Source of the DNA: a virus
Lineage: Duplodnaviria; Caudoviricetes
DNA: 64,000 nucleotides
Virus record (IMG/VR): IMGVR_UViG_3300033068_001920
Span: 14,929-78,928 of that record
Reading direction: 5' to 3' (one strand)
A program made the position numbers and the translations under genes. The notes beneath the pieces are model-generated. The model was not told the DNA's origin and ran no database searches. It was given only the letters and a program-made list of their open reading frames with translations. Each line of letters opens with the position of its first letter. The stretch's first letter is position 1. This document shows, piece by piece, positions 4,177 through 24,224 of the stretch.

Positions 4177-4335
4177 GGCAACCTCACATGATGCATGCAG
4201 ATCTCGGCAAACCCCCAGCCAAGCAGCAGGCCGACGACGAAGGACAGCAAATTGTCTTGGTCGTGATCGCTGGCGCGGCGTCGCGGATGCTTTGTCGGGT
4301 TCGGGGTCGGGCTGCTCATGGTCGCCTCCTTATTC

Positions 4336-4629
4336 TTAGATCAATGGGCTGAATCGATCAGTGTCGTGGTTCTTCGGCTTTCTCGGCCAGGCTTCGAGTG
4401 TCCAAGACACAGGCACACCCGGACTTTTCTCAATGGCTTCCACCGCTACTTTGTACCGTGCAACATACCCGTCCGGGAGCAGCTTTACATGACGCACCAA
4501 GCGGACCCCGGTAACCCGCCAATAGGAGCATTGCTTCTTGGCTACGGTGACGTGGCGGACGACGTGACCGACTGCCGGCTCACCATCACCAGTCCAATCC
4601 ACGGTCCATCGTTTCTGACGGCGAATCAC
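4336..4629 (-). CDS. Hypothetical protein
   Basis: ATGA overlap with upstream ORF. Confidence 0.5.
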   Translation of the reverse strand: MIRRQKRWTVDWTGDGEPAVGHVVRHVTVAKKQCSYWRVTGVRLVRHVKLLPDGYVARYKVAVEAIEKSPGVPVSWTLEAWPRKPKNHDTDRFSPLI

Positions 4630-5897
4630 TGCGGGGTGAAGTTGGTGGCCTGCAGGCGGCGCGAGAACGCGAGCAGTTCACTCGGCGTGAAGGCGTAAAG
4701 CGGCGCCCCCAAATTAACCTTGCCGTCGCCGTAATAGACGCCGCACTTTGCTGCGATCGCCTTCACGACATGGTCGGCCACGGGCGAGGGGCGGGTGTAG
4801 AGCATGCCCAGGCACTTGCATGCCATTTCGAGATCGCGCGGGAACCTTTCGACGTTGATCTTGCCCGGCGCATTGAACCCTTGCACTTTTCTAAGCAGGA
4901 ACGCGGCCAGCCGTTCTGGCGCCACCGCCTCCCTGCCTGCGCCCTCGGCCTGCGTCATCTGACCGATCTTCGTCAGCGCCGCCGTCAGCGTCCCTTTGTC
5001 GCGACTGACATGGCCGATGGTGCCGACATTCACGACCGGCTTACCCTCGCCCTGAGTCGTCATCTGCTGGGGGGCGGCTGCGGGGTTGGCTTCGCTACCC
5101 GCGATCATGTGGCAGACCTTCCAAAACGCATCCGCGCACGGTTGGTAAAAATCGACCGTGTCGGCGCAAACCGCGCAGTGCCGCACCAGCCGGTCAACAT
5201 CATCCATCAGCAGCAAGGCTTGCCGCTGCCAACTCGTGTTTTGCGGATTATTTTCCCCCTCGGCTGCCGGCTGCTGGGGGAGGGGGGCGGCTTTGTGCAA
5301 CTTTCGCAAGACATTGATCGCGGCCTCCAAGTCTTCCGCCATCGCCGGGCGGCTGCGATTCCGCAGCACGTCGGCGCCAAGGCGCATGGTGTCCAGAACG
5401 TCGGCCCATTCATTATCCGACAGGCTGACCGCATCTGCGCGCCCTGCGACCTCGCGGGCGTCGCCGTAGGCAGTGAGTTCATCCTGCGAATAGCCGAGAA
5501 AAGATTTCGGGCTCGGCAACTTTGCCGGCGGCCAATCACTTTCCGGCCCCATTCTGCATCCGCATATCCAATGCTTCGCCTCCGGCATCGGCACCGCGCC
5601 CGCAGGCTTGGGCGACAGGGGCGTGGCGAGACGGAGCAGCGGAATGCTGTACGGGCGAACAGATGACCCGCTGGCGCCGGCATCAGCAAGAGCGCCGGCT
5701 TTGGTCTTTGCTGAGATTACGCGCGTCGGATCTTCTTCATGCATCCATGCATCGGCATTCCCCGCGCCCTGCTGCCCGGCGGCGATGTGGCGCTCGATGA
5801 AGGGGAGGAGAACTTCGGCAAGCGTGCCAGCCCCGAGGGTGTGCTTTCCATCGACGCGGCGGATCTCTTGCGCCAGCGCTTCTACGGTCAGGTTCAT
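4626..5897 (-). CDS. Mosaic hypothetical phage protein
   Basis: Long ORF; likely start MNLTVEALAQEIRRVDG at 5897. Confidence 0.65.
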   Translation of the reverse strand: MNLTVEALAQEIRRVDGKHTLGAGTLAEVLLPFIERHIAAGQQGAGNADAWMHEEDPTRVISAKTKAGALADAGASGSSVRPYSIPLLRLATPLSPKPAGAVPMPEAKHWICGCRMGPESDWPPAKLPSPKSFLGYSQDELTAYGDAREVAGRADAVSLSDNEWADVLDTMRLGADVLRNRSRPAMAEDLEAAINVLRKLHKAAPLPQQPAAEGENNPQNTSWQRQALLLMDDVDRLVRHCAVCADTVDFYQPCADAFWKVCHMIAGSEANPAAAPQQMTTQGEGKPVVNVGTIGHVSRDKGTLTAALTKIGQMTQAEGAGREAVAPERLAAFLLRKVQGFNAPGKINVERFPRDLEMACKCLGMLYTRPSPVADHVVKAIAAKCGVYYGDGKVNLGAPLYAFTPSELLAFSRRLQATNFTPQ

Positions 5898-19197: not shown

Positions 19198-20330
19198 ACG
19201 ACCACCGTGATGCGCTCAGCGGCGCGAGTCAAGCCGGTGTAGAGATGCTTCGCCGCGTCCTCGCGAAAGGCGTAGGACTCATCGAATAGGACGACATTGT
19301 CGAATTCGGAACCTTGGGCCTTGTGGACAGTGAGCGCGTAGCCGAAGGTGAATTGCTGCAGCCCTTTCAACTGCTCCCACGCCAGTTCCTTTTCGGCGCC
19401 GCGGAAGAACTGCTCCGGCACCTTGACGCGGACGGTGCGCGCGCCGGGGTCGTCGATCGACCTTGCCTGGATCTTCAGAACCCCGGTTTTGCTCTTAGCA
19501 TCGACGCTGATCGCCTCCCACAACCCGCCGTTCAGTAGTCCCAGTTGGCGGTCGTTGCGCAGGCAAACCATCCGGTCGCCCGGGACAGGGTGATGCGGAA
19601 CTTTGATGCCCTGACGATCGTGGAGTTCGCGGATCCGTGAGTTGAAATTGTGCCGCGTCTTGTTCAGGCCGCAGAGCACTTGGTCGGCGGACATGACGAG
19701 CTCGCGCATGGCGTCCTTGCCGATCTCGCATCGACGAACGACTCGGCTGTCGCCGTAGCGCCCGGCATGCAGAGGCCTGCCCTCACGGACATCCATGCTC
19801 ATCCGGATGATCGGATTATCGGCGGCCTGGCGGTGAACCTCCGTCAGCATGATGTCCGGCTCGGCGTTGATGAAGAATCCCTCGCCCTTCACCGGCGGCA
19901 ACTGCGCCGGGTCGCCGAGTACCAGAACCCGCGTCCCGAACGAAAGCAAGTCCTTGGCCAGATCCTCGCCCACCATCGACACCTCATCGATCACGATCAA
20001 CTTGGCGTCGGCGGCAGAACTATTCGGGTTCAGAACGAACCGCGGCGTCTCTTCGGCATCGGTGCCTTCGGGGATGTAGATCATGCTGTGAATCGTGGAC
20101 GCGCCGGCGCAACCCTTCTTGCGCAAGACCAAGGCTGCTTTTCCGGTGAATGCAGCAAACTGCACGGAACCCTTGACCTTCTCTACCACGGCCTTGGCGA
20201 GCGTCGTCTTGCCGGCGCCGGCGAACCCGAACAACCTGAATACTTGTGGGCCATCCGGATCCGCAAGCCAATCGGCGACGGCCTTGAGTGCAGCCTCTTG
20301 CTGCGGGCTCCACGTCGGGGCCGCGGTCAC
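19194..20330 (-). CDS. Dda/RecD-like SF1B helicase
   Basis: GFAGAGKTT, IDEVSMV, GDPAQLPPV, LTEVHRQ, YALTVHKAQGSEF. Confidence 0.92.
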   Translation of the reverse strand: MTAAPTWSPQQEAALKAVADWLADPDGPQVFRLFGFAGAGKTTLAKAVVEKVKGSVQFAAFTGKAALVLRKKGCAGASTIHSMIYIPEGTDAEETPRFVLNPNSSAADAKLIVIDEVSMVGEDLAKDLLSFGTRVLVLGDPAQLPPVKGEGFFINAEPDIMLTEVHRQAADNPIIRMSMDVREGRPLHAGRYGDSRVVRRCEIGKDAMRELVMSADQVLCGLNKTRHNFNSRIRELHDRQGIKVPHHPVPGDRMVCLRNDRQLGLLNGGLWEAISVDAKSKTGVLKIQARSIDDPGARTVRVKVPEQFFRGAEKELAWEQLKGLQQFTFGYALTVHKAQGSEFDNVVLFDESYAFREDAAKHLYTGLTRAAERITVVV

Positions 20331-21742
20331 AGCAGCACCGCCTGGCGTGTCGAATCTTCGGCTTCGATCTTCGCCGCGAGCACCGTGGCGACCGCATGTT
20401 CGCAGCGCACCTGCGCGGTCGCGACGGAATCGGAATCCCGCTCGATGCCGACGACGCTGAAGCCTTCCAAGATCGCGCCCTTGCCTGTGCTGCCGGAGCC
20501 GAAGAACGGATCCAGAACGGTCCCGCCCGGCGGCGTGATCAGGCGGCAGAGGTAGCGCATCAGGTCCGTCGGTTTCACCGTCGGGTGGGTGTTGCCCTTG
20601 CGCGCGCCATCCGCGTTCAGATTCTCCGCGGCGCGCAGCGTGCTGCCCATCTTGAACTGCGGGCCTGGGTCTTCCATGCCTTCGTTGCGATCAAATCTGC
20701 TCGCCTTAGCTGCGTAGAAAAATCGTGCAGCGCTGCCGCCGCCATCGCGCTGGTCGCTTGCGGTCCTGCCGCCGTAGTCGCCGTAGGCATTCGCGGTCTT
20801 GGCGCTAGCTTCCGTTCCGCGGACGGGCGCCACTGCGCCACTCGCTTGGGGGAACGCCGCTTGCACTGCATCGCTGCCGTCCGTGATCAAATTTGCTGGC
20901 CAGCGACCGATATTCGGGTCATGGCCAGACTCGCTTCCGGTCTGTGCTCCGTAAGCACCATAAATCCTATCCTGTCCTTTTCTGGGCGACGCCGGAACAT
21001 TCTTGTTTGTGCCGACCCGACACCCGTCGATATTCAACGCCCCGGTGCCGTTCGCGATTACGTTCGCCGCGACGGTGCCTTCCAGAGGACGACGCGCGAG
21101 GATGATCGGTTCCCATGCGGGCTTCAGGGCGGTTCCCCATCCTTCCCATTGGCGGGCGGCATCGGTGGCAGGAATTGTTAGATCATTGCATCGCGATGGA
21201 GTGGACCACCCGCCCTGTGTCGTCGTGCCACTTGTCCTTTTAGCCGCATCGGGATGAATACCAACCACCTCTCGTTCCGCGCCAGCCGCCTTGTCTATAG
21301 CCCTGCTCACATCCATTGACTTCGGGAAGCCGGATCCATAGCACCATGCCAGCAACGGCGCGCCACCGTCATCGTCATGCGCGTAGCCGATGCTGTCGCG
21401 CAGTTCGAACCCGGCGAGGCGTATCGCCATCGACATCATGTCCATGCTGCGGGTGCCGGCGAAGGCGAGCATGTGCCCGCCAGGTTTCAGCACGCGCAGG
21501 CATTCGCGGAACACCTCCGGGCCGGGAACCCATGCGTCCCATGTCTTGCCCATGAATCCCTTGCCTTTCGGCAGGTACGGCTCGCCGGCGAGCCATGCGG
21601 TCAGACACGCGACGACCTCGGCCGGCTTGTGGTCGCTGAGACCGTAGGGCGGATCGGTGACGATGCTATCAATGCTGCAATCCGGCAGCGTGCGCAGCAC
21701 TTCCAAGCATTCGCCGTGGTGGATGACGAAAGGCGCGGTCAT
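20327..21742 (-). CDS. N4/N6 DNA methyltransferase (beta class)
   Basis: IVTDPPYG, HPTVKP, VLDPFFGSGSTG. Confidence 0.92.
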   Translation of the reverse strand: MTAPFVIHHGECLEVLRTLPDCSIDSIVTDPPYGLSDHKPAEVVACLTAWLAGEPYLPKGKGFMGKTWDAWVPGPEVFRECLRVLKPGGHMLAFAGTRSMDMMSMAIRLAGFELRDSIGYAHDDDGGAPLLAWCYGSGFPKSMDVSRAIDKAAGAEREVVGIHPDAAKRTSGTTTQGGWSTPSRCNDLTIPATDAARQWEGWGTALKPAWEPIILARRPLEGTVAANVIANGTGALNIDGCRVGTNKNVPASPRKGQDRIYGAYGAQTGSESGHDPNIGRWPANLITDGSDAVQAAFPQASGAVAPVRGTEASAKTANAYGDYGGRTASDQRDGGGSAARFFYAAKASRFDRNEGMEDPGPQFKMGSTLRAAENLNADGARKGNTHPTVKPTDLMRYLCRLITPPGGTVLDPFFGSGSTGKGAILEGFSVVGIERDSDSVATAQVRCEHAVATVLAAKIEAEDSTRQAVLL

Positions 21743-23328
21743 GCAACCACCTCAGCGGTAGCCGGTTTGTTGTCGTTCGCCGGCGCCGGCATGCAATCCA
21801 TGTAAGCGCCGATCACTTCGGCCGCCACGGCAGGAACGATTGCGTTTCCGAATGCTCGCAGCTTTCCGACGCGCGCCAGCACGCCATGCGCCAGCATCGG
21901 GATCATTTCGATTTCGGTTTGCGCGGCATCGTCTCCGGCGCGCATTCCAGCCATTCCGGCGGGAAGCCCATCAGCCACGCCACGAATTCGGGTGCCAACG
22001 CGCCGGGCTTTTCCGTCGTGGCCGACGATCCAGGCGTACGACTGCCAAGGTGATGATAGACAGCTGGTGCCAGCGTCATCCCCTTGTCCGGCGTGTATTT
22101 CTGCGCGCCCTTGTGCGCATCTGCTGCCGCTGCCGTCGGCCACATCGCCAACGCATGCGCCCGGATCGCCACCAGCCCCGCCGAGTTGCCCGCTTCGTTG
22201 TTGCCGTTCTTCGCTGGCGCGAGCGATGTCGGTGTCGGACATAGCGCAGCATGCGCTGCCACTTCGAGCGATACCTGCTTGTTCGGCGCGGCAATCCGCC
22301 GCAACGCAGCTTCCCTGCTGCTGCACCGCCATTTGCTGTCCCCCGCGCACGGCGTCGGCCACAAACCACAGTCGGTCCCTTCGATGGGGCGCATCGACGG
22401 CACAACATGGAACAATCGCCGCCCCGCAGGTGTAACCGAGTGCGTGTAGATCAGATTGCACTCCGTCGAGCCAATCGGCCGTAGTCGGCGCTCTAGCGCC
22501 GCTGCGAACCGCCCCTGGAAGCTCTCGTTCCGCTCCGCTTCCTTGGCCTTCAGCGCATCCATGATCGACATGGCGCGATCCAGTCCCCACGTCAGCATCA
22601 TCACATTCAGGCCGAACGCGATCACCCGAACATTGCTGATCGTGTAGCCCAGCTCCGGCACTATCCGATCCAGCGAAGGCGTATCCCAATCCCTCGGGCC
22701 GCCAGACAGCCTGAGTTGCATCCCCGTCAGTTCGCACAGCCCCAAGTTGATTCGCGTCGTCAGCTGCTCTCTGAAGTCCTCCAAATCGAAGGCCAAGCCT
22801 TTCTGCTTCGCGCGCTTCTTCGCATCCGCGATCATGTTCCCGGCCCGGTTGGCAGTCCGCGATGATTTGGCGATAGCTTTCGAGCGTTCCGGGTTTTTCT
22901 CTCGCCAGGCTTTCGAGCGCTCGTTTGAGCGAGGGTCCTTCTTCACGTTTTGCTCCCGCCGCGACGGCGACTTGCTCACCGAACACGACGGCAGGCCGTC
23001 TTGCTGCGATGAGTCTGAGGAAATGGGGCCACAGATGCCGATCGTCATCGGTTCCGCGCTGCTTTCCCGCGACGCTGAACGGCTGGCACGGCGCGGAGCC
23101 GGTCCACAGTTCGCGGTCGTCTGGCCATCCAGCAAGGCGAGCTGCGAGGCTCCATCCGCCAATGCCGGCGAAGAAATGGCATTGCGTGTATCCGGCAAGA
23201 TCGGAAGGTGCCACATCCACGATTGATCGTTCATCCACTTCCCCGGCCGGCAGATGCCCGGCGCTGATTAGGTTGCGCAGCCAGGCGGCCGCATAGGGGT
23301 CGAATTCGTTGTAGTAGTGGGCGCTCAT
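21739..23328 (-). CDS. C5 cytosine DNA methyltransferase, alpha frame, with ~160-aa insertion after motif VI
   Basis: YYNEFDP, FFAGIGGW, GSAPCQPFS, FGEQV, APHRRDRLW, LRAFGNAIVP; ATG 23328 overlaps the upstream stop. Confidence 0.88.
   Translation of the reverse strand: MSAHYYNEFDPYAAAWLRNLISAGHLPAGEVDERSIVDVAPSDLAGYTQCHFFAGIGGWSLAARLAGWPDDRELWTGSAPCQPFSVAGKQRGTDDDRHLWPHFLRLIAARRPAVVFGEQVAVAAGAKREEGPSLKRALESLAREKPGTLESYRQIIADCQPGREHDRGCEEAREAERLGLRFGGLQRAADDANQLGAVRTDGDATQAVWRPEGLGYAFAGSDSAGAGLHDQQCSGDRVRPECDDADVGTGSRHVDHGCAEGQGSGAERELPGAVRSGARAPTTADWLDGVQSDLHALGYTCGAAIVPCCAVDAPHRRDRLWFVADAVRGGQQMAVQQQGSCVAADCRAEQAGIARSGSACCAMSDTDIARASEERQQRSGQLGGAGGDPGACVGDVADGSGSRCAQGRAEIHAGQGDDAGTSCLSSPWQSYAWIVGHDGKARRVGTRIRGVADGLPAGMAGMRAGDDAAQTEIEMIPMLAHGVLARVGKLRAFGNAIVPAVAAEVIGAYMDCMPAPANDNKPATAEVVA
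21903..23234 (-). CDS. Overlapping +1-frame beta polypeptide (motif IX) with embedded HNH-like nuclease domain
   Basis: LAPEFVAWLMGFPPEW and WPTP repeats; CELTG...SLDRIVPELGYTISNVRVI nuclease core. Confidence 0.8.
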   Translation of the reverse strand: MNDQSWMWHLPILPDTRNAISSPALADGASQLALLDGQTTANCGPAPRRASRSASRESSAEPMTIGICGPISSDSSQQDGLPSCSVSKSPSRREQNVKKDPRSNERSKAWREKNPERSKAIAKSSRTANRAGNMIADAKKRAKQKGLAFDLEDFREQLTTRINLGLCELTGMQLRLSGGPRDWDTPSLDRIVPELGYTISNVRVIAFGLNVMMLTWGLDRAMSIMDALKAKEAERNESFQGRFAAALERRLRPIGSTECNLIYTHSVTPAGRRLFHVVPSMRPIEGTDCGLWPTPCAGDSKWRCSSREAALRRIAAPNKQVSLEVAAHAALCPTPTSLAPAKNGNNEAGNSAGLVAIRAHALAMWPTAAAADAHKGAQKYTPDKGMTLAPAVYHHLGSRTPGSSATTEKPGALAPEFVAWLMGFPPEWLECAPETMPRKPKSK

Positions 23329-23873
23329 GCAGCCACCGGCGCAAGCGTATTGACCCATCCCGGAACGAATGCGCCAGGGATGCCGCATTGGAGGAGGCAC
23401 CGCGCGTTTTCCTTTCCGTACGCGATTAGGACGCTTGGCGCTCCGCCATTCGCGTCGGCGCGTCGGCCATCGACATGGTGGAAGTGGAGCCGGCCCTCAA
23501 GGAACAGGAGCGCGTCCGCTTTCATCCAGACGTGCTCAAAGAACATGGCCGTTTCAGTGCGCGCGAAGATCAGCGCGATCGCGTTGCGGTGCTCGGCGCA
23601 ACGGGCAAGCCATGCCGCAGCTTCGCGGCCATAGGGCGGATTGCAGAAGACCTTGCCCTCCCAGTCGCGGGCAAGGCCGTTGTCCAGCATCGTGAAGTGG
23701 TTCTTGGCCATCTCCCAAGGCCGGACGATGGGAGCGCATGGATCCAGGTCGAATTGACCAAGTGCTTGGAGGATTTCAGGCGGCGTCAGCCACTCATCCT
23801 TGCCCATTCGATGGGACTGGTGTCCGCCGATACCGCGGCCCTGCGACTCGGGCAAGACTGAACTGCTGTCCAA
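23325..23873 (-). CDS. Phage N6-adenine DNA methyltransferase (Dam-like)
   Basis: DEWLTP, FDLDPCA, DNGL..DW, VFCNPPYG, ARTET. Confidence 0.88.
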   Translation of the reverse strand: MDSSSVLPESQGRGIGGHQSHRMGKDEWLTPPEILQALGQFDLDPCAPIVRPWEMAKNHFTMLDNGLARDWEGKVFCNPPYGREAAAWLARCAEHRNAIALIFARTETAMFFEHVWMKADALLFLEGRLHFHHVDGRRADANGGAPSVLIAYGKENARCLLQCGIPGAFVPGWVNTLAPVAA

Positions 23874-23975
23874 GGGGAATCCTCACCTCACAGAAAAAGG
23901 CGGGGCCGGCGCGGTGGAGGTTTCACCTTTGCAAGGGGCATGACTCCCTCGCCCGCCGACCCCGTGGTACAGGGA

Positions 23976-24224
23976 TCAAGGGCAGCGAGTGATGCTGCCG
24001 ATGTAGTACAGGTGATGATGTTTGGTCTCGCTGGCGCGATGGGAGAATATCGTTCTCCCTTCCGCCTCCAAGTCCTTCCGGATCTCGCGGATTCGCGCAG
24101 AAATCGCGGTGTCCGAGTGCTGGATGCCGAACCGACTGAGGATGCGCGCATTGATTTGATGGATCGCCAGCGCGCGCCCGCTTTTCTCCAGAACCGCTTT
24201 CACATGATCGTACTGCGTGGCCAT
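23976..24224 (-). CDS. Small HTH protein
   Basis: LAIHQI...SDTAISARIREIRK. Confidence 0.65.
   Translation of the reverse strand: MATQYDHVKAVLEKSGRALAIHQINARILSRFGIQHSDTAISARIREIRKDLEAEGRTIFSHRASETKHHHLYYIGSITRCP

Follow-up and report, generated by a model that had tools for sequence, protein, structure and literature searches.

The locus described here raises the question of how a nuclease-coding sequence can sit inside a DNA methylase gene that is itself read in two frames, and leave both frames open. It lies in a 64,000-nt stretch of DNA from a virus of the Caudoviricetes (the window), in which a cytosine-C5 methyltransferase is divided between two overlapping frames, alpha and beta. An earlier reading made from the sequence alone had placed motifs I-VIII and X in alpha and motif IX in beta (the +1 frame), and direct reading of the motifs, PHROG matches and frame-specific omega values all bear this out. 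The methylase and its neighbours are laid out as follows.

23325..23873, minus strand: upstream neighbour, a Dam-type N6-adenine methyltransferase (PF05869, E 1.7e-13)
21739..23328, minus strand: alpha, the large (catalytic) domain of a C5 DNA methyltransferase (529 aa from ATG; motifs I-VIII and X)
21903..23234, minus strand: beta ORF (443 aa; +1 frame, wholly inside alpha)
22969..22983, minus strand: alpha motif VI (F-G-E-Q-V), adjoining the 5' side of the insert
22357..22476, minus strand: alpha motifs VII-VIII (D-W-L-D-G-V to R-R-D-R-L-W-F-V-A)
21951..21998, minus strand: beta motif-IX-like segment (L-A-P-E-F-V-A-W-L-M-G-F-P-P-E-W)
21832..21849, minus strand: alpha motif X (G-N-A-I-V-P), a confident helix in the model
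20327..21742, minus strand: downstream neighbour, an N6/N4 DNA methyltransferase (PF01555, E 1.3e-22)

The Dam-type gene abuts the alpha start codon, the start codon of the N6/N4 methyltransferase overlaps the alpha stop codon, and the alpha frame stays open upstream to 23400. The same phage has another C5 methylase, in which Pfam finds a Hint domain. The N-terminal part of alpha matches PF00145, and alpha as a whole matches phrog_363. Beta, for which Pfam gave no match, matches phrog_3322 ("endonuclease", E 9e-22) at residues 95-236 and phrog_1008 ("DNA methyltransferase", E 4e-24) at residues 224-436; it is made up, in order, of a low-confidence leader of ~95 aa, the nuclease domain, a helix and hairpin, a variable zone of W-P-T-P repeats and the motif-IX-like segment. 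This last segment is kept in 65 of the 90 longer homologues, most of the others having close variants, and is modelled at pLDDT 69-79; the recognition zone is modelled at about 40, and a whole-beta profile run against PDB sequences gave no match for either the recognition zone or motif IX. In the AlphaFold2 model of alpha, residues 1-80, 100-120, 281-330 and 495-515 are confident, and pLDDT is 25-66 in the insert (residues 123-280) and 30-42 in residues 332-491. Alpha has two spacers, both unconstrained: the insert, and the zone overlapping the target-recognition region of beta. Invariant columns were found in 76 alpha and 87 beta homologues, with G494 and V498 of alpha motif X invariant in all 76.

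The same nested beta ORF occurs in eiAU, BcepC6B, PHB09, Tunturi_1, Tadhana (47% G+C) and K1ind2, and the nested layout is kept from 47% to 66% G+C in phages of Proteobacteria, Acidobacteria and Firmicutes. Since this frame layout recurs in many independent records, we rejected a sequencing or assembly frameshift. A precedent is M.EcoHK31I, the heterodimeric C5 methyltransferase of E. coli HK31 (Lee, Kam and Shaw 1995, as described in PMC2836561), in which, by its description, beta is likewise encoded entirely within the alpha gene in another frame. There, however, the recognition domain is said to belong to alpha, with beta (176 aa) holding nothing but motif IX, whereas in the window frame-specific constraint puts the variable recognition zone in beta and its counterpart in alpha is spacer-like. 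M.EcoHK31I also has no nuclease insert.

In the window, the two halves of the alpha reading are parted just after motif VI by an inserted element with the following parts.

22477..22958, minus strand: inserted element (482 nt between conserved anchors)
22944..22957, minus strand: possible internal start for a 347-aa nuclease-beta product (GTG 22946..22944, GGGAG 22957..22953)
22524..22934, minus strand: PacI-like His-Me-finger endonuclease domain (beta frame, beta residues 101-237; pLDDT 87-98)
22587..22679, minus strand: beta-beta-alpha-metal core (beta residues 186-216)
22470..22508, minus strand: 3' end of the insert, encoding the beta helix F-A-A-A-L-E-R-R-L-R-P-I-G in different codons

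From GEQV to DWLDGV there are 504 nt in the window and 30 nt in the insert-free allele of Cyanophage Cy-LDV1. Over empty alleles the net gain is 474 nt, equal to 158 codons, which keeps both frames in phase and comes close to the separation of about 490 nt (~22480-22965) between motif VI and DWLDGV that the sequence-only reading had estimated. In nucleotide alignments the insert is absent from Cy-LDV1 and from contig L023, and the junctions are sharp; the distal 3' part of L023 is 97-100% identical to the window. The site is shared by the window, L008, L010, L011 and L018-L022, and in beta it falls at the boundary of the unstructured leader and the folded core. At the motif VI codons beta now reads S-K-S, and comparison with insert-free alleles shows that the family's S-R-L has been lost. 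In empty alleles the beta helix listed above is co-encoded with motif VI; here it is recoded at the 3' end of the insert, forming a helix at beta residues 239-254 (pLDDT about 90). Because of this recoding we infer, from short alignments, that the segment overlapped by both frames was probably duplicated, leaving one copy per frame. The ORF of the insert has no stop codon and runs on into the beta core. Gene callers begin the window's own protein (P0005) and P0006 at the internal GTG, which is absent from L008, L010, L018 and L020 and present in the window's lineage only, so this putative start is not a conserved feature.

We then asked what the insert encodes. Its beta reading had been taken for a His-Me-finger nuclease, and PHROG, PacI profile and fold matches agree with that. 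A match to an HNH profile was found in PHROGs, in a PDB profile search and by fold comparison, but not in Pfam, where the nuclease segment gave no match either alone or across 47 family members. The nuclease matches phrog_3322, phrog_1035 and phrog_3118. The best match in both structure and sequence profile is the restriction enzyme PacI (PDB 3ldy, 3m7k; His-Me-finger group 20, PMC5714182), although each match is modest: the family profile reaches PacI at E 0.0098; VIA-align, run on 48,161 chains, puts the PacI-DNA complex 3m7k first (Z 7.8, rmsd 2.9 over 89 residues) with other HNH domains below it; and the top three Foldseek matches are HNH endonucleases including PacI (probability 0.96-0.99, E 0.04-0.09). 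Identity to PacI is only about 17%. The two nevertheless share the pattern S/V-D-R ... G-Y ... N ... N, the core segment aligning with PacI residues 88-115, and in both a loop tyrosine stands in the place of the catalytic histidine, a replacement described for PacI (PMC5714182). In the window the core residues are S187, D189, the candidate catalytic Tyr197, N201 and N210, carried on strands 186-190 and 202-206 and helix 207-216 (pLDDT above 90), with D-R where D-H would be expected. They are invariant or nearly so in sets of 87 and 47 homologues (Y197 and N210 are invariant in the 87), and the window's copy retains every family-invariant residue. The model also shows a long basic helical region belonging to the nuclease itself.

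PacI is a free-standing homodimer with two zinc sites, whereas the window's copy is embedded in a methylase subunit. Of 65 beta-fused relatives, 44 have the N-terminal CxxC...CxxC ribbon of PacI, as do many of the free-standing ones; the window's copy has no such zinc-binding CxxC pairs flanking its core. The sequence-only reading had suspected a degenerate nuclease for want of a second CxxC. This suspicion found no support: the catalytic core of the family has no such CxxC, the invariant residues are kept, and omega in the beta frame is low (see below). The window's copy also has N-V-M-M where L012-L016, the five more distant of the free-standing homologues whose loci are sequenced, have N-x-x-K; we rejected this as a sign of decay, since free-standing relatives such as P0148 share N-V-M-M.

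Read in alpha, the same DNA is stop-free and unstructured-looking, as had been remarked from the sequence, with no stop codon and the low pLDDT given above. At nine loci (the window, L008, L010, L011 and L018-L022, with L010 and L011 carrying the same insert) there is no alpha-frame stop in the insert, and across insert-bearing loci the third frame has 11-29. The eight loci other than the window range in nuclease-segment identity from 81% down to about 35-50%, so the alpha frame stays open across diverged inserts; it is open through both spacers in all loci examined. Over the 173 beta-frame codons that span insert and junctions in the window, we counted 0 stops in alpha and 12 in the third frame. 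When the window's beta-frame protein was resampled with synonymous codons, alpha-frame stops averaged 6 and P(0) was 0.0015; over the three lineages so treated, P(0) lay at 0.0007-0.003. The free-standing phage homing endonucleases of phrog_3322 (e.g. next to terminase in Ralstonia/Bordetella T7-like phages) are 33-39% identical to the window's domain and have all core motifs in common with it, but they are separate genes between others, and in the frame that is stop-free here five free-standing homologues (55-65% G+C) have 3-7 stops and one (43% G+C) has 18.

Selection follows the same division. Within the insert, omega is 0.08-0.32 in the beta frame over 155 codons and about 2 in the alpha frame. 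A sliding omega map shows constraint alternating between the frames block by block, with values in alpha of 0.06-0.31 in the motif blocks and 0.7-4 elsewhere, and in beta of 0.04-0.19 over the nuclease against 0.33-0.58 over the variable zone. The insert is an unconstrained, low-confidence spacer when read in alpha and a nuclease under purifying selection when read in beta.

Comparison of alleles suggests that the element moves. A tract of about 600 nt, made up of the insert with about 20 nt upstream and about 95 nt downstream, is 100% identical between L010 and L011, although the N-terminal parts of these alleles agree at only 86% of positions and their recognition zones are unrelated. Nucleases of 96-98% identity adjoin quite different recognition zones. 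Between the window and L023, identity falls to about 60-70% on either side of the insert, over about 60 nt on the 5' side and about 110 nt on the 3' side. Insert-bearing alleles agree with one another at 84.7-88.3% over the 111-nt segment 22366-22476, whereas L008 and Cy-LDV1, with outer flanks that match at 89-91%, reach only 80.2% there; the segment also lies inside the identical L010/L011 tract, and this alpha motif VII-VIII segment thus appears to travel with the insert. The tracts common to otherwise diverged alleles point to recent lateral transfer. The identical tracts could have arisen by ordinary phage mosaic recombination rather than by nuclease-driven homing.

Relatives of the nuclease came from protein searches; peptide patterns from the insert, scanned on viral contigs, found none. 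The homologues are free-standing phage endonuclease genes adjoining terminase, portal, polymerase and thymidylate-synthase genes, with two or three copies in Ralstonia phages, and to judge from these neighbours they sit in classic homing-endonuclease positions. The nearest free-standing relatives found (phmmer) are P0146 and P0148, at 42-48% identity. Of the best 148 clusters (50% identity), at least 65 and probably about 80 carry the nuclease as a beta fusion; the methylase family itself is insert-free in its large majority. That beta fusions persist with their invariant residues intact would be expected of a useful domain no less than of a purely selfish one.

Altogether, these comparisons suggest that a selfish PacI-like homing-endonuclease gene has probably inserted itself into a two-polypeptide phage C5 methylase of the M.EcoHK31I type. 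It would have entered directly past the motif VI codons of alpha. Beta, translated from the nested +1 frame, would supply the variable DNA-recognition zone and motif IX, and would assemble with alpha into the enzyme. Because the 158-codon element has no stop codon of its own, the nuclease would be made as part of beta, and in the window's lineage the internal GTG may also yield the 347-aa nuclease-beta product. Ribosomes translating alpha would read through the insert to give a loop of ~158 residues, of arbitrary sequence and selected only against stops, with which alpha would presumably remain active; splicing would not be required. In a co-infection, the nuclease would cut insert-free alleles near the motif VI codons, the likely homing site, and repair from the invaded allele would copy the element plus short flanks. 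A mobile endonuclease fused to one frame and neutral in the other, without splicing, is also what the sequence-only reading had proposed, and the four of its proposed checks that were run, on insert-free alleles, open alpha frames, nuclease matches and introns, all turned out in its favour; the support for this selfish element is all comparative.

It is unlikely, though not negligibly so, that the fusion has instead been domesticated, an alternative already put forward in the sequence-only reading, the nuclease being a working domain of beta that is perhaps steered by the beta recognition zone to the sites that alpha and beta methylate. This might give the phage a compact unit, restriction-modification-like or degrading host DNA, that is built around a single shared specificity module. 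The nuclease is indeed joined to beta at both ends, with no stop and usually no start of its own, and strong purifying selection has retained all invariant residues in 87 homologues; yet it also retains its own long basic helical region. Near-identical nucleases are found with varied recognition zones, as is the case in modular specificity subunits, but alleles that are otherwise near-identical differ in having or lacking the insert, and it is on the insert that the diverged or identical tracts centre. While beta-nuclease fusions make up the greater part of the best 148 clusters, some of the closest relatives are free-standing genes placed like homing endonucleases, and the large majority of the family are insert-free enzymes. 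Loss of the zinc ribbon, possibly an independent DNA binder, in the window's lineage would suit domestication, as would the proposal that viral PacI relatives are viral restriction enzymes (PMC5714182). Less probable again is that beta serves as a shared specificity subunit, methylating with alpha while its PacI-like domain cleaves unmethylated sites. If true, this would be a minimal phage-borne restriction-modification or host-DNA-degradation unit in overlapping frames, which could gain a new specificity by swapping its recognition zone; a nuclease working via that zone would make it a new, compact kind of restriction-modification unit.

We consider it quite improbable that the insert is an inactive relic of one invasion, a nuclease that no longer cuts and persists because clean removal is rare and both host frames tolerate it. 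The missing zinc ribbon and the N-V-M-M in place of the N-x-x-K of L012-L016 could be taken that way, but N-V-M-M is also found in free-standing relatives, the beta-frame omega and the retention of all family-invariant residues speak against it, and an identical copy in diverged alleles implies recent transfer. That neither alpha nor beta alone has all ten motifs might suggest an intron, an intein or programmed frameshifting that joins the two frames into a single polypeptide, but we give this very little credence: no intein termini or evident intron had been seen in the sequence, Rfam (introns included) gave no match at E <= 1 in 21000-24000, on which ground an intron was rejected, the nuclease fills almost all of the 474 nt, so that a ribozyme core would not fit, Pfam detects no Hint domain in the alpha or beta frame here, a frameshift product would not need an alpha frame that is open through both spacers at every locus examined, and M.EcoHK31I functions as two polypeptides.

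The selfish-element explanation has a close parallel in the ShiLan domain, which together with the Pacc40 insertion represents hidden out-of-frame HNH endonucleases in mycobacteriophage DNA methylases (Arsenault, Gosselin and Gogarten 2025, Genes 16:178, PMC11855218). As in the window, the methylase frame of ShiLan gains no stop, an HNH-type endonuclease occupies another frame, features of introns or inteins are lacking, a loose loop is predicted for the host-frame reading, and part of the flank is repeated at a junction. Set side by side from its description, however, ShiLan encodes a canonical HNH nuclease that has zinc fingers, whereas the window's nuclease is PacI-like with tyrosine for histidine. 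The ShiLan enzyme is also a separate 195-aa protein with its own GTG start and TAA stop, while the window's has no stop and is joined in frame to beta, a second functional gene overlapping the methylase frame. The novelty claimed in the sequence-only reading was thus overrated, since the two-frame methylase (M.EcoHK31I) and the hidden out-of-frame HNH (ShiLan) are both already published; the distinguishing feature here is that the nuclease is fused in frame to beta. As a consequence of this fusion, one stretch of DNA meets three coding demands, an active-looking nuclease, in-frame joining to a second protein and stop-free passage for a first, which shows how far coding density can go. The hidden-HNH idea of 2025 is at the same time widened from a few mycobacteriophages to a large and mostly metagenomic phage and prophage methylase family, and gains a PacI-type nuclease. 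Because gene callers keep only one of the two frames, the nucleases and many beta subunits are missing or mislabelled in databases. In Tadhana and K1ind2 the alpha and beta ORFs are both annotated.

The methylase locus is read in two overlapping frames of the minus strand, the third frame carrying many stops, and a nuclease reading lies within it. The features are as follows.

23328 (ATG) to 21739, minus strand: alpha, the large (catalytic) C5 methyltransferase gene, 529 aa
23234 to 21903, minus strand, +1 frame relative to alpha: beta, the nested gene, 443 aa
about 22477 to 22958, minus strand: the insert, as placed by alignment with Cyanophage Cy-LDV1

The N-terminal part of alpha matches PF00145 (the C5 methyltransferase family), and the phage family phrog_363 covers the whole protein. 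In beta, residues 95-236 match phrog_3322 'endonuclease' (E 9e-22) and residues 224-436 match phrog_1008 'DNA methyltransferase' (E 4e-24); families named 'endonuclease VII' and 'HNH endonuclease' give weaker matches. Genes for a Dam-type adenine methyltransferase and an N6/N4 methyltransferase flank alpha, with zero intergenic space on both sides. Paired open frames were also found in Cy-LDV1, in phages eiAU, BcepC6B, PHB09 and Tunturi_1, and in Paenibacillus phage Tadhana (47% G+C) and coliphage K1ind2, the last two having both nested genes in their annotation. The layout in two frames is characteristic of the family, and a precedent has already been published in the two-polypeptide C5 methylase M.EcoHK31I.

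Sliding omega along the gene, comparing the window with one relative, shows that constraint passes from one frame to the other. Omega for alpha is 0.06-0.31 over motifs I-VI, VII-VIII and X; for beta it is 0.04-0.19 over the nuclease and 0.33-0.58 over the variable W-P-T-P zone, and the motif-IX-like segment is constrained in the beta frame. The predicted alpha model is confident in the motif blocks only. In the window the recognition zone appears to belong to beta, which differs from the description of M.EcoHK31I, where alpha is said to carry it. The beta leader has omega above 1 and a pLDDT of about 45. It may have no constraint of its own, since its conserved N-terminal 'motifs', such as M-T-V-T-S-G-Q-K and A-S-R-S-A-S, are, family-wide, no more than +1 readings of the conserved D-D-R-H-L-W-P and P-C-Q-P-F-S codons of alpha (for example at 1309-2013 of locus L006 and 23060-23234 of the window). 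In the window's family the ATG that starts beta arises within alpha V-D-E codons.

Compared with Cy-LDV1, which is insert-free, the window has exactly 474 extra nt (158 codons) between G-E-Q-V-A...G-K and D-W-L-D-G-V. A second empty allele, on contig L023, matches the window at 97-100% identity in its distal 3' part. The insert is almost wholly occupied by the nuclease reading, and an Rfam search matched neither an intron nor any other RNA family in it.

In the beta frame the insert encodes a small phage endonuclease from a large family, which gave 6261 matches at E <= 0.001 among 1.8 billion representatives and is without a model in Pfam. Free-standing members adjoin terminase, portal, polymerase and thymidylate-synthase genes, which are typical homing-endonuclease positions, and there are two or three copies per genome in Ralstonia phages. 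A 47-member family profile matches the restriction endonuclease PacI (E 0.0098) in an alignment that extends over the N-terminal CxxC...CxxC ribbon as well as the S-x-D-R...G-Y...N...N core. Residues 100-285 of the beta model reach pLDDT 87-98 and include two strands followed by a helix at residues 186-216. Among 48,161 solved chains the structure closest to this model is that of PacI bound to DNA (Z 7.8, rmsd 2.9 over 89 residues); further HNH domains rank below it, and the top three Foldseek hits were HNH endonucleases. Three independent lines, each a modest match, thus agree and point to a PacI-like nuclease. PacI is a known His-Me-finger enzyme with a loop tyrosine in place of the catalytic histidine (PMC5714182). 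The sequence-only reading had suspected that the nuclease might be degenerate, a worry that finds no support: C167, G171, S187, Y197, N201, N210, W216 and G217, invariant in 87 homologues, are all kept in the window copy, its N-V-M-M variant is found in free-standing relatives as well, and the zinc ribbon that it lacks is optional.

Among deposited phage genomes, the best tblastn match to the window nuclease (39% identity) is in Klebsiella phage SBP (OP114730.1 46917-47393). There it is a free-standing gene directly downstream of a C5 cytosine methyltransferase gene, with an 11-nt overlap, and this arrangement may represent an intermediate position for the element family. Cy-LDV1-like phages have an endonuclease VII gene of the canonical T4 type (PF02945) just downstream of the methylase, and the nuclease that it encodes differs from the inserted one of the window.

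4198-4701 of Cy-LDV1 (L001): endonuclease VII gene (PF02945)
4490-4975 of the insert-bearing locus L008: endonuclease VII gene (PF02945)

We then consider how the element fits into two genes at once. In empty alleles one DNA stretch encodes alpha F/M-G-E-Q-V and the beta helix ...E-S-R-L-R.... In invaded alleles the 5' copy retains alpha motif VI, and the beta reading there becomes S-K-S; at its 3' end the insert re-encodes the beta helix (...L-E-R-R-L-R-P-I-G) in different codons, and the alpha reading there is meaningless. From these short alignments the overlapped segment appears to have been duplicated, one copy per frame. A similar flank repeat is described for the ShiLan element, an out-of-frame HNH in a mycobacteriophage methylase (PMC11855218). 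The first 95 residues of beta are modelled with low confidence, and the nuclease continues directly into the first confident helix, so in the model the element is placed at the start of beta's folded part. At its 5' edge the window insert has a GTG preceded by GGGAG. Such a start is absent from the insert-bearing loci L008, L010, L018 and L020, so that, on sequence grounds, translation of beta must usually be the way in which the nuclease is produced.

Free-standing homologues have 3-7 stops in the frame equivalent to alpha's (n=5, 55-65% G+C), or 18 in one homologue of 43% G+C. The inserted copies of the window, L008 and L010/L011 have none in 173 codons, and 11-12 in the third frame. Synonymous-codon resampling of the nuclease gave about 6 stops on average, with P(0) of 0.0007-0.003; permutation of only the element's own codons gave P(0) of 0.002-0.035. 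At five further loci, with nucleases about 35-50% identical to the window's, alpha is open for 521-742 aa through inserts that are longer and ribbon-bearing, with 22-29 stops in the third frame. Within the insert the alpha model has pLDDT 25-66. As omega there is 0.08-0.32 in the beta frame against about 2 in the alpha frame, the alpha reading of the insert is arbitrary sequence, kept only stop-free.

Loci L010 and L011, from different samples, agree at every position (100%) of a tract of about 600 nt that spans the insert, about 20 nt of upstream sequence and about 95 nt of downstream sequence. The two loci share only 86% identity in the N-terminal parts and have unrelated recognition zones. 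L008 and Cy-LDV1, with and without the insert, are 89-91% identical in the outer flanks and only 80% identical in the motif VII-VIII segment beside it, a segment 84.7-88.3% identical among insert-bearing alleles. Between the window and L023, about 60 nt on the 5' side of the insert and about 110 nt on the 3' side show a lower identity, of about 60-70%. Nucleases 96-98% identical are paired with quite different recognition zones. These four patterns are probable marks of a transfer in which flanking DNA was converted along with the element; ordinary mosaic recombination is a possible alternative source. The varied pairing, together with the strong conservation of the nuclease and its fusion to beta, would also allow a domesticated role, which we consider unlikely. 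A published case for comparison is the ShiLan element (Arsenault, Gosselin and Gogarten 2025, PMC11855218), which shows none of the features of introns or inteins and whose disjoint distribution suggests homing. The window differs from it in that the nuclease is of the PacI-like type, the host gene was dual-coded beforehand, and the nuclease reading, lacking a stop codon, is continuous with the second gene as a fusion.

Among the best 148 representative clusters of the nuclease search, 90 proteins have at least 300 residues, and at least 65 of these 90 end in the beta motif IX (about 80 if close variants are included). The zinc ribbon is present in 44 of the 65. Insert-free alpha proteins far outnumber insert-bearing ones. 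In two homologues, P0181 and P0275, the beta and alpha frames are joined in one nuclease-bearing ORF, since each starts like beta (leader, nuclease, G-S-T-L-...-T-W-K) and ends with the alpha C-terminal D-G-K...G-N-A-I; they may be pseudogenes with frameshifts, products of sequencing error or a distinct architecture.

Other insertions were also seen. In the alpha frames of homologues P0014, P0031, P0048 and P0104 and of locus L022, a different insertion of about 130-150 aa separates D-G-K-A-R-R-V-G from motif X. Helical-looking and conserved between members, this insertion reads like a genuine alpha-frame domain, and it is unrelated to the nuclease insert; L022 carries both insertions. Finally, a second C5 methyltransferase gene of the same phage (window 13246-16023, minus strand) is a 925-aa ORF that bears an intein, its PF00145 protein containing Hint_2 (residues 74-137) and LAGLIDADG (292-340) domains by Pfam. 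Because of this intein, one phage is seen to have two cytosine methylase genes, each invaded by a different kind of selfish element.
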